A DNA stretch of 20,704 bases. Origin: Candidatus Wukongarchaeum yapensis (GTDB lineage: Archaea > Asgardarchaeota > Wukongarchaeia > Wukongarchaeales > Wukongarchaeaceae). The stretch lies in contig JAEOSI010000015.1 of assembly GCA_016840425.1 (NCBI GenBank), positions 1-20,704 on the forward strand, in the 5' to 3' direction. Every line of letters starts with the position of its first letter. Position 1 is the first letter of the stretch. Positions 2,572-20,704 of this stretch are shown piece after piece. Position numbers and translations under genes: made by a program. Under the pieces are notes generated by a model. That model did no database searches and was not told where the DNA came from. It was given only the letters and a program-made list of their open reading frames with translations.

Positions 2572-5337
2572 TTGAGATTGTCTTCTAAAATCAGACGGCT
2601 TGTAGACGATATAAATAAGATTATGCTTTTTAAAGAAAACATTCGTAATTTCTGCATATGTTCCCATGTTGATCATGGAAAATGTGTTTCTGGTGATTCA
2701 AAAGTTTATGTTAATGGTCAATGGGAGAAAGCTTCTGTACTTTTTGAATCCTTTAAACAATCTCCGATAATTTTTTCTGGTAAAAATGAAACAGTTTTAG
2801 ATGTTTCTTCAAAAGGTTTGCGCACCATATCTCTAGATGTTTCTACTGGATGCATTTTGTGGAAACCCATAACCTATATCTGGCGATTAAAATATGATTC
2901 TAATTTGATTGAAGTTTCATTAGGGAATGGAAGAAAAGTAAAAGTTACTCCTGAGCACAAATTTTTAGTTTTAAACGGTAATAAAATCATAGAAAAAAAT
3001 GCAAAGAATCTGAAAAAAGGAGATTATATAATTGTGCCTAATACGTTGCATGTAACTCCCAATGATCCTGATTTTATTTCTAAAACAATTCCACTTAATA
3101 GCAAAGATATATGTTTTGAAAAAGTGGTTTCAAAAAGTTTAATGTTTGAAAATTATGTTTATGATTTTTCTGTTCCTGATACTCATAATTTAGTTGTGGA
3201 AGGATTTTTCGTACATAATACAACCCTCGCTGACAATTTGTTAGTTGCTGCTGGTCTACTTTCACCAAATGTTGCGGGAAAGGCTCTTGCTCTAGATTAT
3301 TTGGAAGAAGAACAAAAAAGAGGTATAACGATAAAAACAGCTATAATATCTCTTTTACATAAAATCGGCAATAAATCTTACATACTTAATCTGATAGATA
3401 CCCCCGGTCATATTGATTTTAGTGGAAAAGTAACAAGGGCACTGCGAATAATTGACGGTGCAGTAGTAGTTGTAGATGCTTTAGAAGGAATTATGGTTCA
3501 GACAGAAATTGTTACAGAACAAGCGTTAAATGAATGTGTAAAACCTGTACTATTTATTAACAAATTAGACCGTCTTATCCGCGAGTTAAAACTATCTCCC
3601 AAAGAAATCCAAAAACGTTTAAGTTCTATAATTAGCGACTTTAATGGCATCATCGATTCTTATGCAGAGCCAAAATTCATTAAATTATGGAAAGTTAAAC
3701 CTGCTGCAGGATCTGTGACTTTTGGTTCAGCTCTTCATAGGTGGGGTTTTACATTACCAATTGCTAAAGAAAAAGGTGTAAAATTTTCAGACATAATTCA
3801 GTTTTATGCCCAAAATAATGGGTTTTTAAAGCTTAGCACTTTGCTTCCTCTTCATTCTGCTGTACTTGATATGATTGTTAATCATCTTCCTTCTCCTACG
3901 GAGGCTCAGGCTTATCGTATACCTAAACTTTGGCATGGTGACCTTTCTAGTGAAATCGGTCAAGCCATGCTTAAATGTGATTCAAGTTCTCCTCTTGTCA
4001 TTGTTATAAATCATTCTTACATTGATCCTTTAGTTAAAAGTGTTATTTGTATGGGGCGAATTTTTTCTGGTGTTGTCCATGTTGGCGATAAGGTGTTTAT
4101 TCTTTCTAAAAAGAAACGGAACAGAGTTCATCAAGTAAGCATGTTTATGGGTGAAAATCGCATTGTTGTAGACGAGGTTTCTACTGGTAATATAGTGGCT
4201 CTTCTGGGTCTTGAAGAAGCACGTCCTGGGGATACTGTTTGTGATTTATCTATAGCGGATTCTATGGTTCCTTTTGAGTTAATAAAATATGTGAGTGAAC
4301 CTGTTGTCACAGTTGCTATAGAACCTTTAAATCCGAAAGGTTTACCCAAAATGATTGAAATAATGGAAAAAAATCTTGTTATTGAAGATCCTAATCTCAA
4401 AGTTTCTATTAATAAAGAGACCGGAGAATACCTTTTAAGCGGTATAGGCGAGTTGCATCTTGAAATAGCAGCAAAGAAAATTATAGAACATGGCATAGAT
4501 GTTTCAATTTCTCCTCCAATTGTTTCATTTAGGGAAAGCATTACGCAAAAAACTCCTCATCCCATTGTTGTTAAGAGCCCTAATCATTATAATGAAATGT
4601 CTTTGATAGTTGAACCTCTCGAGGAAAAAATTGTAGACTTAATAATTAACACGGGTATAAATGGTCCTTTTACAGAAAAAGAATCGCCGAAATTGGTAGG
4701 AGACTTTATCGATAAAACTTTCCTTGATTTAAGGAAAATTTTGGGATTATCTGCTACAGGAAATATCTTGCTTTTAGATTTTGAAAATTCTCAACTTTTG
4801 TCTGATGTTAAAGATTCCATAGTATCCGGATTTTTGCAAGCTTGTAATTCTGGTCCTTTATGCGAAGAATCTCTTCGCGGGATAAAAATTTTGGTCAAAA
4901 ACTTAAATTATGCTGATGTTATTCAAAAACGGGGAAGTGAAATCGTTCATATGGTTAAAAATGCTATATGGGATGCAATAATCTCATCTGGTCCATCACT
5001 ATTAGAGCCTATTTATAAAATAACGATACGTCTTACTCGTGATTTCATTGGAAAGGTTAAACATGTTCTCTCTAAAAGGAGAGGAACTATTCATAGTATT
5101 AAAGAAAAACCTCCTGTTTTCATTATAACCGGGTTTATACCTGTGGCTGATACCTTTAATTTAGCTTCAGAATTAAGAAGTGAAACTAGTGGAACCGCTC
5201 TTTGGCAAATGAAACTTGATCATTGGGCTTTTGTCCCTAAAAACAAGTTAAAAAACCTCATACTTGAAATTAGGCAACGAAAAGGCCTCTACCCTGACTT
5301 TCCAGAAACTCCGATATTTCTTGATAATATTGAATAA
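2572..5337 (+). CDS. fusA: Elongation factor 2 paralog (aEF-2p-like), intein-containing precursor of 921 aa, about 742 aa after splicing
   Basis: TTG start after AAGGAG. Motifs SHVDHGK/TT, EEEQKRGITIK, DTPGHIDF, NKLD, SGIGELHLE, GPLCEE..LLEP. KRG replaces the HRG diphthamide motif. Confidence 0.95.
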   Translation: MRLSSKIRRLVDDINKIMLFKENIRNFCICSHVDHGKCVSGDSKVYVNGQWEKASVLFESFKQSPIIFSGKNETVLDVSSKGLRTISLDVSTGCILWKPITYIWRLKYDSNLIEVSLGNGRKVKVTPEHKFLVLNGNKIIEKNAKNLKKGDYIIVPNTLHVTPNDPDFISKTIPLNSKDICFEKVVSKSLMFENYVYDFSVPDTHNLVVEGFFVHNTTLADNLLVAAGLLSPNVAGKALALDYLEEEQKRGITIKTAIISLLHKIGNKSYILNLIDTPGHIDFSGKVTRALRIIDGAVVVVDALEGIMVQTEIVTEQALNECVKPVLFINKLDRLIRELKLSPKEIQKRLSSIISDFNGIIDSYAEPKFIKLWKVKPAAGSVTFGSALHRWGFTLPIAKEKGVKFSDIIQFYAQNNGFLKLSTLLPLHSAVLDMIVNHLPSPTEAQAYRIPKLWHGDLSSEIGQAMLKCDSSSPLVIVINHSYIDPLVKSVICMGRIFSGVVHVGDKVFILSKKKRNRVHQVSMFMGENRIVVDEVSTGNIVALLGLEEARPGDTVCDLSIADSMVPFELIKYVSEPVVTVAIEPLNPKGLPKMIEIMEKNLVIEDPNLKVSINKETGEYLLSGIGELHLEIAAKKIIEHGIDVSISPPIVSFRESITQKTPHPIVVKSPNHYNEMSLIVEPLEEKIVDLIINTGINGPFTEKESPKLVGDFIDKTFLDLRKILGLSATGNILLLDFENSQLLSDVKDSIVSGFLQACNSGPLCEESLRGIKILVKNLNYADVIQKRGSEIVHMVKNAIWDAIISSGPSLLEPIYKITIRLTRDFIGKVKHVLSKRRGTIHSIKEKPPVFIITGFIPVADTFNLASELRSETSGTALWQMKLDHWAFVPKNKLKNLILEIRQRKGLYPDFPETPIFLDNIE
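2683..3219 (+). other. Mini-intein (179 aa, no homing endonuclease) in the EF-2 P-loop
   Basis: Interrupts HVDHGK|TT. Begins with Cys (CVSGDSKV), block B TPEH, block F VYDFSV, C-terminal VHN followed by Thr+1. No LAGLIDADG motif. Confidence 0.95.
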
Positions 5338-18477: not shown

Positions 18478-18737
18478 TTCCCAATTTAGTATCTGCCCTA
18501 CTTTAAGACTCTAGAAAATAAACATTTTTAATTTCTAATTGCCCAAAGAAAACTGATTGTTTACCTTTCATTGTTTTCACATCTAAAAGCAAAGCTAACT
18601 TTTTTAGTTTTCCATCAAGATTTACATCCTTCCTTGACGACTTTGGGGTGAGACGCGGTTCTTAGCAGCTCAAATTCAGGGCGGAAGGGTTGATTTGATT
18701 TGAATTCAGTTCTCTTCCTTTTTTGAGGAGTATCCCC

Positions 18738-19247
18738 ATGCTGTTAGAGAGTCTGAACTCTGTCTCCTTGGCTCGAGTCTCTTACTTGAAGCGCTCGTAC
18801 TCCACAACCTTTTTCAAAGATGTTTTTCTACGTTCTGGAAATGATATAGCTGGGATTTTGTTGTCTACAATCTATGAATTGCTCGAATCCCGAGCCAAAG
18901 AAGCCGAAAAATACGTGCAACGAAGTAAAGGGGCTAAATTAATCTTAAAGATAGCTGGGGCTGTTCGTCTCAATATTGAGACGGCCGATCCCCCGGATCA
19001 AGCTGCTGCTACTATCACGGGAAAAGAGGTCATTGTCTCTCACGAATTGCTAGAAAAACCCCATGCTACAATAAATGGTAAATCCAACGTAATCAAGGAC
19101 TTGATCGCCTCTACTAGGGAAGAAGATATTTCTAAAAGTGCTAAAAACTTTGAAGCTGCTGAAAAGCGTGGAGATGCCAGTATCCAATCACATGGGATCA
19201 AAGGAAAGCTTATCGTTTCAAGAGTGCGAAAAATGCTTCTAGACTAA
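18738..19247 (+). CDS. Hypothetical protein, probable SCP2 (sterol carrier protein 2)-like lipid-binding fold
   Basis: ATG after SD GAGGAG. C-terminal pattern VRLNIE..ATITGKEVIV..PHATINGKSNVIKDLI..AEKRGDASIQ..KLIVSRV resembles SCP2 spacing. Judged by eye only. Confidence 0.5.
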   Translation: MLLESLNSVSLARVSYLKRSYSTTFFKDVFLRSGNDIAGILLSTIYELLESRAKEAEKYVQRSKGAKLILKIAGAVRLNIETADPPDQAAATITGKEVIVSHELLEKPHATINGKSNVIKDLIASTREEDISKSAKNFEAAEKRGDASIQSHGIKGKLIVSRVRKMLLD

Positions 19248-19382
19248 ACTGAAAAGCCCTAGTAACGAGACACGGTTTTCTGCGGGTGAATTATGGGTTT
19301 CTCTTATTTCAGGTTTTTTGATTTTTTCTTTTTTTCTTTGCTCGCCAAAGGATAACACTGATCCCCCCCCCGGCGAACATCT

Positions 19383-19810
19383 GCCGCCTCTGGGGCGGTT
19401 TATGGAAACGCGTTTCGAAGATTCAAAACGCATTCTTCGAAACAACTAAGGGGATACCTTTGAACCTTCGCGGGTTCATCAGACACCTCCTAATTAGAGC
19501 TATTGGCGCTGACAGCGCGCTTCAGCTCGCGCTCTCCTACATAAATAAAAGAGGAGAGACGGAAGTAGAGGCAACCGAACCGTCGGCGGGGTTCCGATCC
19601 TACCTCGGCAACTTAGCCCGTTCGGTCCTCGAAAACGCTGAAGAACTATGTGAGAATCGTAGCACTAGACGCAAACAGTCGTTACGCGTCGTCGTTGACC
19701 TTATAAACAATGAAGGACTATCTACCTTCAAAGGTCAACGATCTAAAGAAAACACCCTCAAAGGATTAAAATCGAAAATAAAGGCCTCAGAGACTTCCGA
19801 GGGCGTTTTC
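19383..19810 (+). ncRNA. Candidate structured RNA of unknown family (array of hairpins upstream of tRNA-Ser)
   Basis: At least nine stem-loops tile the region almost without gaps, with GC-rich stems and several A-rich loops. See findings. Confidence 0.55.
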
Positions 19811-19817
19811 CAGCGGA

Positions 19818-19946
19818 GCCGGGGTCGCCTAGTGGTATGGCGGTAGGCTCGAGTGCTTGATTTCTTGCCTGTCTGAGGGGGATAGGTTTTTTCGGGTTAC
19901 CTGCTGACGCTTGTGCGTCGCGTGGGTTCGAATCCCACCCCCGGCG
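19818..19946 (+). tRNA. tRNA-Ser(CGA) with a 45-nt intron at position 37/38 (19854-19898)
   Basis: Acceptor GCCGGGG/CCCCGGC with discriminator G, D arm GCCT-AGTGGTA-TGGC, anticodon stem GTAGG/CCTGC, anticodon CGA at 19850-19852, long variable arm GACGC-TTGT-GCGTC, T arm GTGGG-TTCGAAT-CCCAC. Splice helix CTCG/CGGG. Confidence 0.93.
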
Positions 19947-20087
19947 TCATAACTATCTCTTTTTTAGTATTGTATCATGAAGAAATAATTTGTAAATCGA
20001 TCTTTTTTTTGATGAAAAAGTTGAAAAAGATAGTTGTGTATGTGTATTTACTTTTCGCTTAGATTAACCTGCTTTTTAGGGAGATTG

Positions 20088-20704
20088 ATGACGATGATAT
20101 CATCTCTAATGGAAAAGTTGGCTGAAATGGAGAGCATACTCCGCGAGCGCTTCGAACGGGGAGGATACAAGTCGGAAATCATAACGGGGCCGGTATCCCC
20201 CGATCATGTGCCGAAAGTCTCGTCGGAAGAACAGGATCGCATCTCATCTTTGTTGGAGGAGAAGGGCAGGATCACAAAGAACATATGGGCGATAACGCAA
20301 ACCCCCGTGGAAGAGGACTTAGACCTCCTTCTAATGGAAGGAAACTACTACTACGACATCCAAAACTTCAGAAAAGCGAGGGAAAAGTTCGAAAAAGTGT
20401 TAAGAATAGACCCGGAAAACGTCAAAGCGCTAATAAACCTCGGGGTAACTCTCGAAGTGCTAGACGAATGGGAAAAAGCCCTAAAACACTTCCAGCGAGC
20501 TCTGAAGATCTTCGGGGAGTTGGGGGACAAGAGTGGTGTGTCCCTCTGCCTCAATAATATGGGCGCCATCTTTTATGATCAGGGTGATTATGGTGATGCT
20601 TTGGAGTACTTCCAGCGAGCTCTAAGGATCAGGGAGGAGTTGGGGGACAAGAGTGGTGTGTCCCTCTGCCTCAATAATATGGGCGCCATCTTTTATGATC
20701 AGGG
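20088..20704 (+). CDS. Tetratricopeptide-repeat protein; 3' end runs off the window
   Basis: Hand translation from ATG 20088 after AGGGAG: MTMISSLMEK..LMEGNYYYDIQNFRKAREKFEKVLRIDPENVKALINLGV..FQRALKIFGELGDKSGVSLCLNNMGAIFYDQGDYGDALEYFQRALRIREELGDKSGVSLCLNNMGAIFYDQG. Confidence 0.92.
   Translation, partial: MTMISSLMEKLAEMESILRERFERGGYKSEIITGPVSPDHVPKVSSEEQDRISSLLEEKGRITKNIWAITQTPVEEDLDLLLMEGNYYYDIQNFRKAREKFEKVLRIDPENVKALINLGVTLEVLDEWEKALKHFQRALKIFGELGDKSGVSLCLNNMGAIFYDQGDYGDALEYFQRALRIREELGDKSGVSLCLNNMGAIFYDQ
20488..20704 (+). repeat. 120-nt near-exact tandem repeat (one 40-aa TPR unit)
   Basis: 20516-20584 is identical to 20636-20704 (69 nt) and 20488-20503 is identical to 20608-20623. The array continues past the window edge. 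Confidence 0.95.

Follow-up and report, generated by a model that had tools for sequence, protein, structure and literature searches.

Positions 19270 to 19817 (+ strand) of the window, the 20,704-nt stretch of Asgard archaeal DNA analysed here, are best explained, with a probability of about 60%, as a decayed copy of a TnpB-like element that carries an omegaRNA-like scaffold, has the 5' end of the adjoining tRNA gene as its would-be guide, and includes a 3' module that is probably needed for transcription of that tRNA (Table 1). An earlier note on this DNA had singled out positions 19383 to 19810 as a stand-alone, unrecognised ncRNA or a leader of tRNA-Ser. The sequence is instead repeated and derived from a mobile element: it is present at 10 sites in the genome and forms the tail of a TnpB-like gene. 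The 430 nt flagged at that time consist of what is left of a nuclease gene's last ~60 codons and of the non-coding 3' region of the element. What stands of the earlier reading is that the 3' ~200 to 290 nt are conserved, structured on the + strand, and abut the tRNA; what falls is the notion of a stand-alone gene.

Table 1. Parts of the element copy and the adjoining tRNA gene, in window coordinates
Feature	Position	Strand	Basis
T-rich left-end remnant of the element	19270-19343	+	Homology to other left ends of the family
Decayed end of the TnpB-like ORF, last ~60 codons (about aa 455-518)	19348-19530	+	Homology, codon-position signal
Start of the non-coding 3' region	19531-19620	+	No codon periodicity
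197-nt 3' module, candidate omegaRNA-like scaffold	19621-19817	+	In all 15 copies; covariation
Hairpin P2 (GACGC/GCGTC), loop bears the variable box	19668-19690	+	Two compensatory pairs
Variable 6-nt box GTCGTT, 5' strand of the pseudoknot	19678-19683	+	Pairs with 19812-19817
Long hairpin P3 with nested P3b (GAAGG/CCTTC)	19691-19742	+	Alignment, covariation
Hairpin P4/P5 (GAAAACACCCTC ... GAGGGCGTTTTC)	19748-19810	+	91.5% paired, one compensatory pair
Terminal 6 nt of the element (AGCGGA), pseudoknot 3' strand	19812-19817	+	Covariation
tRNA-Ser(CGA) gene with a 49-nt intron	19818-19946	+	Rfam RF00005, 42.3 bits

A repeat family at the 5' ends of tRNA genes

BLAST searches reveal 10 copies of the sequence in the window's own Asgard genome (G000, 92% complete) and 5 in a sister species of the same genus (G001, 87% complete), with 78 to 95% identity. 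A covariance model built from the copies (R1) recovers the same 15 (10 in G000 and 5 in G001) and has zero matches in 39 other Asgard genomes. The G000 copies occupy 10 different sites, 9 of which are recognisable tRNA genes. By size, the family comprises full-length copies of ~2.25 kb (C110, C189, G001 C1, C121, C59), copies with internal deletions (the window copy and C89), copies of ~290 nt (C77 and C3), and copies of 197 nt (C259, C268, C123, and C232). Left ends are homologous across copies, and the 3' 197 nt (window 19621-19817) are kept in every copy larger than an 11-nt footprint at C70. Orthologous tRNAs of G000 and G001 bear copies of different size classes, which indicates that copies decay in place. 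The 197-nt copies all have the same first base, equivalent to window 19621; of these, C268 keeps its left end, and C123 is orthologous to a full-length copy in G001.

The right end of every copy abuts base +1 of a tRNA gene, which at C77 is degenerate, and conservation stops there. In the window, the 5' end of the tRNA-Ser gene, GCCGGGGT, is the insertion target of the family. All G000 tRNA genes that start with GCSGGGGT, a grouping defined after the data were seen, carry either the module or the 11-nt footprint, and about 25 G000 tRNA genes with other 5' ends are free of the module. Comparison of the filled site at C189 with the empty orthologous site in G001 shows that the insertion duplicated tRNA bases 1 to 14, GCGGGGGTGGCCGA. 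At C189, an orphan copy of the tRNA start sits behind the native promoter, with the T-rich left end of the element directly 3' of it, and seven other copies have a 10- to 14-bp, partly mutated direct repeat of the start of their own tRNA. The filled/empty pair reveals a true insertion, and the element family is, or was, mobile.

A second GCGGGGGTGACC-type tRNA, on the reverse strand of C70 with its start at 4479, has before it nothing more than an AT-rich box and the final 11 nt of the element (gtttttgagcg), which look like the footprint of a copy that has been almost wholly deleted. Together with the empty site in G001, this near-complete loss shows that the target tRNAs can do without the module itself, which counts against the preferred explanation. 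Some metagenome contigs (run X3) have, at L010 position 3117 (G000 C189:13116), the native leader ...ATGAAGCTAGGC directly before the tRNA start, which suggests an empty-site allele in the natural population, with cross-mapping of repeat copies making this uncertain. In the orphan copies at C268, C89, C77, C259, and G001 C121, 6 of 9 substitutions fall in positions 1 to 5, a bias that is not significant and could reflect chance or an escape from self-targeting.

The sequence 5' of the target tRNAs, where the left flank is variable, shows no conserved TAM-like motif. The element holds a single gene, and no transposase for it was identified. The transposase search covered Cas1 and Y1 TnpA; Cas1 (PF01867) has no match in G000 or G001. 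Canonical IS200/IS605 elements (Y1 TnpA followed by a typical TnpB) are present in G000 in two copies, at C70:7544-8568 and in C117. Their Y1 TnpA was considered as the mobiliser of the tRNA-targeting element and rejected, as the IS that carries it is unrelated to this one in sequence.

Among more distant relatives, no tRNA adjacency was seen in Neobacillus, in a JGI metagenome contig, or (with ARAGORN) in other Asgard genomes, and three copies in genome G013 have neither a tRNA flank nor a duplication. The tRNA genes of G000 are heavily interrupted, Rfam detecting only 25 tRNAs in this genome, and the C110 tRNA (G000 C110:13550-13700) appears to carry a second insert inside its T-loop.

The parent nuclease gene and its relic in the window

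The window copy is an internal-deletion relic in which the left-end remnant is joined to the end of the ORF and the non-coding 3' region. The remnant is 78 to 88% identical to the region 5' of the TnpB-like ORF in C189 (11057-11109), to C89 2276-2344, and to matches on C208, C54, and C109, and it can be aligned to other left ends of the family; the ORF relic is 80 to 83% identical to the ORF 3' ends of C110, C189, and C89.

Intact ORFs of 607 aa in C110 and 615 aa in C189 have the repeat as their 3' end. These ORFs show sub-threshold matches to TIGR01765 (TnpB N-terminal domain), guided_TnpB, and TIGR01766, all below the curated NCBIfam cut-offs, and Pfam searches with the nuclease (P0001), P0002, the 128-aa ORF discussed below, and ORF174 gave no usable match. 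Relatives in the databases contain PF27229 (SSO2105_N), and their names read "IS200/IS605 TnpB-related." In an alignment of 23 sequences, RuvC-I D294 and RuvC-II E356 are invariant, and the place of the RuvC-III Asp is taken by an invariant His (H423, motif HEAAAF). There is no C4 zinc finger, just ~15 residues without Cys pairs between PAYSS and HEAAAF. Replacement of the RuvC-III Asp by His and lack of the C4 zinc finger define the RIIIr-4 clade (Altae-Tran et al. 2023, PNAS, PMC10691335), and, judged by its sequence, the parent protein is a TnpB-like nuclease of this clade. Its AlphaFold model is confident at residues 1 to 449 and disordered past residue 450; the best Foldseek matches of the model in PDB are Cas12f, Cas12k, and Cas12g (E down to 6.5e-10; TM (target) ~0.5), pointing to a predicted TnpB/Cas12 fold of the Cas12f-like kind. 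The intact IS-like element of ~2.25 kb consists of the T-rich left end, its own promoter, the gene for the 607- to 615-aa nuclease, and the structured 3' RNA region. C110 alone has, 5' of the nuclease gene, a 73-aa ORF (L009:1006-1227, G000 C110:11305-11526) with a weak match to ribbon-helix-helix (RHH) proteins (E 0.039), which recalls the published RHH-TnpB pairs.

The limit of the coding sequence was determined by a codon-position test on four full-length copies. Over ORF nt 0 to 1350, third positions change 2.5 to 4 times as often as first and second positions; over nt 1350 to 1560, they change about twice as often, and overall divergence is unusually low; in the last ~280 nt, the third-position excess is absent. 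Because of this excess in the intact copies, and because more distant homologues stop near residue 518, window 19348-~19530 is the relic of a real coding sequence, which was probably also under extra constraint at the nucleotide level. Window ~19531-19817 is non-coding, as it shows no third-position excess, though the frame often stays open. The earlier note had set a possibly conserved 128-aa ORF (19460-19846) against a structured RNA; by the codon-position test, that objection holds for the 5' third of its region, which is coding, and fails for the 3' two-thirds, which is non-coding. This ORF is a relic of the open C-terminal tail of the nuclease gene. It is hardly credible as the gene of a genuine protein or as a C-terminal nuclease domain: the frame does remain open through the module in most copies, but the last ~280 nt are devoid of a codon-position signal, residues 450 to 607 of the nuclease have pLDDT values below 50 and run past the end of its homologues, there is no Pfam match, and the ORF extends 29 nt into the tRNA.

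Structure of the 3' module

With positions recomputed from the sequence, all the stems listed in the earlier note were found where it had placed them, and the 7-nt gap that it gave between the last stem and the tRNA is correct (stem end at 19810, tRNA start at 19818). The anticodon CGA and the long variable arm, both read by eye, bear out the assignment to tRNA-Ser; ARAGORN finds no tRNA in the window with default settings and mislabels the isotype when introns are allowed. Positions 19201 to 20000 are indeed GC-rich (0.475 versus about 0.30 to 0.40 across most of the window), and Rfam searches, both at the gathering threshold and at E <= 10, match the tRNA alone, in agreement with the reported lack of a known-RNA signature. 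The structured region has a minimum free energy of -153.4 kcal/mol, and the folding-energy comparison with shuffled sequences that the note had proposed gives significant z-scores of -5.6 for the + strand and -4.5 for the - strand. Its view that G-U pairs favour the + strand extends to the aligned copies, and the structure is assigned to this strand because of the invariant G-U pairs.

Covariation was found for P2 to P5 and the pseudoknot, within the last 197 nt, and is lacking for the stems at 19383 to 19630. The latter are mostly invariant. In the ORF relic, the hairpins GCCGCC/GGCGGT, GTTTCGAAGA/TCTTCGAAAC, and GCGCT/AGCGC are conserved without covariation, whereas TGAACC/GGTTCA (76% paired) and GAGCT/AGCTC (57%) are broken in most other copies. 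Between 19531 and 19620, CTCTCCT/AGGAGAG and GAGG..ACCGAAC, which pairs with 19620-19630, are conserved but invariant; the equivalent of this segment is found in the long and ~290-nt copies and is missing from the 197-nt ones. The alternative partner GAAAACGC (19631-19638), seen earlier as a hint at a switch, is conserved but does not covary.

The proposed fold, P1 to P5 (stems from 19646 onward) and a pseudoknot, was tested on 14 copies, in which 93.6% of cells are paired. Twelve pairs show double (compensatory) changes, such as GC/AU/CG at columns 49/69 in P2, compared with 5.6 +/- 1.6 in shuffles (none of 500 reaches 12) and at most 6 in slid controls. The strongest covariation signal comes from the pseudoknot between the variable box and the element junction, where 5 of 6 pairs covary and 97.6% of cells are paired in the 14 copies; it also fits two further metagenomic copies. 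In most other copies, this helix uses four bases of the element and the first two bases of the tRNA.

The module also contains TTATAAA (19701-19707), a candidate archaeal TATA box that lies in the internal loop of P3 and is invariant across all copies, and, some 40 nt ahead of the tRNA, a second candidate promoter box, CTCTAAAA. When the columns of the module are compared with tRNA positions 1 to 22, mutual information is at the level of noise, giving no sign of a target-matching guide inside the module, and no bulge-helix-bulge motif was seen by eye at the module edges.

Proposed role, competing explanations, and known systems

By position and architecture, the 3' module would be the omegaRNA-like scaffold of the nuclease, and the first ~14 to 16 nt of the tRNA, directly 3' of it, would be the guide, with the pseudoknot closing the 197-nt fold of five helices onto the element/tRNA junction. 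The element inserts inside GCSGGGGT tRNA genes; as it duplicates bases 1 to ~14 of the tRNA, its right end always has an intact tRNA gene directly 3' of it. Oligo-T runs are archaeal terminator signals, and those of the left end may stop transcription from the native promoter and cut the tRNA off from it. With that promoter blocked, the tRNA would have to be transcribed from within or through the module, plausibly as a co-transcript from which RNase P would separate the module RNA. Such dependence of the tRNA on transcription from the module would explain why the module survives in every decayed copy, including that of the window. Model R1 detects no module next to more distant RIIIr-4 genes, so the case for a scaffold is one of position and structure. 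It is a point against the guide that RNase P cleavage at -1/+1 would sever it from the presumed scaffold. The lack of a visible TAM-like motif, of an Rfam match to a known omegaRNA, and of an identified transposase also counts against the preferred explanation, as does a duplication foreign to IS200/IS605 elements.

The covariation of the module could equally serve single-stranded DNA. The structure might then act as the single-stranded right end of a transposon, with the variable box as an IS200/IS605-type internal guide that marks the cleavage site and with no functional RNA needed. The layout, from a guide box through a hairpin to a cleavage-site-like junction, fits such an end; the most strongly covarying helix lies exactly across the boundary of the element, which has defined ends and is or was mobile, DNA hairpins tolerate G-T pairs, and a Y1 TnpA gene is present in the genome. 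We nevertheless consider this unlikely, since the box is separated from the end by ~135 nt and two more conserved hairpins, whereas in IS608-type ends the guide box is far nearer; since IS200/IS605 elements make no duplication comparable to the 10 to 14 bp seen here; and since the left flank lacks a conserved 4- to 5-nt target, the sole TnpA resides in an unrelated canonical IS, and decayed, immobile copies still keep the whole 197 nt. Similarly improbable is that the module of the protein-less copies is a mere relic, retained as a promoter or leader of an essential tRNA, with an RNA fold that is now functionless. The left-end T runs begin just after the orphan tRNA fragment, the invariant TTATAAA and the second box lie within the module, all copies exceeding the C70 footprint keep it, and C70, where all but 11 nt is lost, has its AT-rich box 32 to 45 nt upstream. 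Against this, helices far from the promoter-like boxes keep compensatory pairing even in protein-less copies, the four short copies retain the entire 197 nt from the same first base, which exceeds the needs of a promoter, and two intact nuclease genes could use the module RNAs in trans.

The repeat family and the link to a nuclease gene largely refute the reading as a stand-alone ncRNA or regulatory leader, possibly a switch, belonging to tRNA-Ser. A strong fold z-score without an Rfam match, proximity to the tRNA, and the conserved alternative pairing spoke for it, but the same sequence precedes 10 sites (9 recognisable tRNA genes), ends a TnpB-like gene, is confined to one genus, and has an alternative helix without covariation, which makes such an RNA very unlikely. 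A bolder version of the scaffold reading, for which we see only a slim chance, is self-retargeting RNA-guided insertion, whereby the scaffold and the adjacent tRNA 5' end would guide the TnpB-like protein to other GCSGGGGU tRNA genes with no separate transposase. The duplication (+1 to ~+14) would then correspond to the length of the guide-target duplex, each new tRNA would become the next guide, and the junction pseudoknot would decide between release of the tRNA by RNase P and production of guide RNA.

Cas12 nucleases descend from TnpB, and the target choice and movement of TnpB elements are still under study. The RIIIr-4 clade, for which a guide RNA encoded by a long 3' region has been proposed, includes an archaeal RHH/MazE-TnpB group, and its RHH-linked archaeal members have been described as non-mobile (PMC10691335). 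The family described here shares with the clade the His in place of the RuvC-III Asp, the lack of a zinc finger, the long 3' region, and, in C110, a weak RHH-like ORF; it differs in that it is or was mobile, is specific for tRNA genes, and mostly lacks an RHH gene. Neither tRNA association nor target duplication is given in that paper (PMC10691335), the main text of which does not contain the word tRNA. A search of the literature on TnpB/tRNA and SSO2105 yielded no tRNA-5'-specific insertion with a ~14-bp duplication and no junction-spanning pseudoknot, and an Asgard tRNA-intron preprint makes no mention of a tRNA-targeting element. Already published are the protein clade and the concept of a guide RNA encoded 3' of the nuclease; for the insertion at tRNA 5' ends with duplication and for the junction pseudoknot, we found no description.

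As in the omegaRNA/reRNA of IS200/IS605 and IS607 elements (e.g., ISDra2), the structured region takes in the 3' end of the nuclease ORF and stops exactly at the boundary of the element, and there are protein-less miniature copies. In the ISDra2 and Cas12f structures, too, a pseudoknot involves bases just before the guide. Unlike the known omegaRNAs, to which it has no sequence or Rfam similarity, the structured region is about 290 to 470 nt long and is always flanked by a tRNA 5' end, so that RNase P would compete with guide formation. IS200/IS605 elements insert on the 3' side of a short fixed target and duplicate nothing, in contrast to the 10- to 14-bp duplication here, and no Y1 TnpA was found inside the element, nor one in trans whose ends match it. 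Casposons resemble the element in making a ~14-bp target duplication and preferring tRNA genes. They insert at the tRNA 3' end, whereas this element is found at the 5' end, with no Cas1 in G000 or G001 and no evident terminal inverted repeats. Asgard TnpBs linked to Cas1 have been reported (PMC10691335).

If the guide scaffold is real, a single transcript would pit guide-RNA production against tRNA maturation, and the family would be a natural case of a guide drifting over a set of similar targets. In IStrons, described by Zedaveinyte and colleagues in 2024, one transcript reportedly has two exclusive fates, host RNA maturation and TnpB guide RNA; there, the competing process is group I splicing, and by analogy it would here be RNase P cleavage of the pre-tRNA. 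The family represents a single-gene RIIIr-4 TnpB element of an Asgard archaeon that lands solely at base +1 of tRNA genes of one defined class. For genome annotation, it accounts for GC-rich "orphan" structured regions 5' of intron-rich Asgard tRNA genes.

The neighbours in the window include the genes for EF-1alpha and ribosomal protein S10 and the intron-rich tRNA. Between the S10 gene and the element lies a 174-aa ORF (18723-19247) that has no Pfam or NCBIfam match, and a TPR-like ORF that runs off the window end (20497-20704) contains a near-identical tandem duplication of ~120 nt (ccagcgagctct...gatcaggg).
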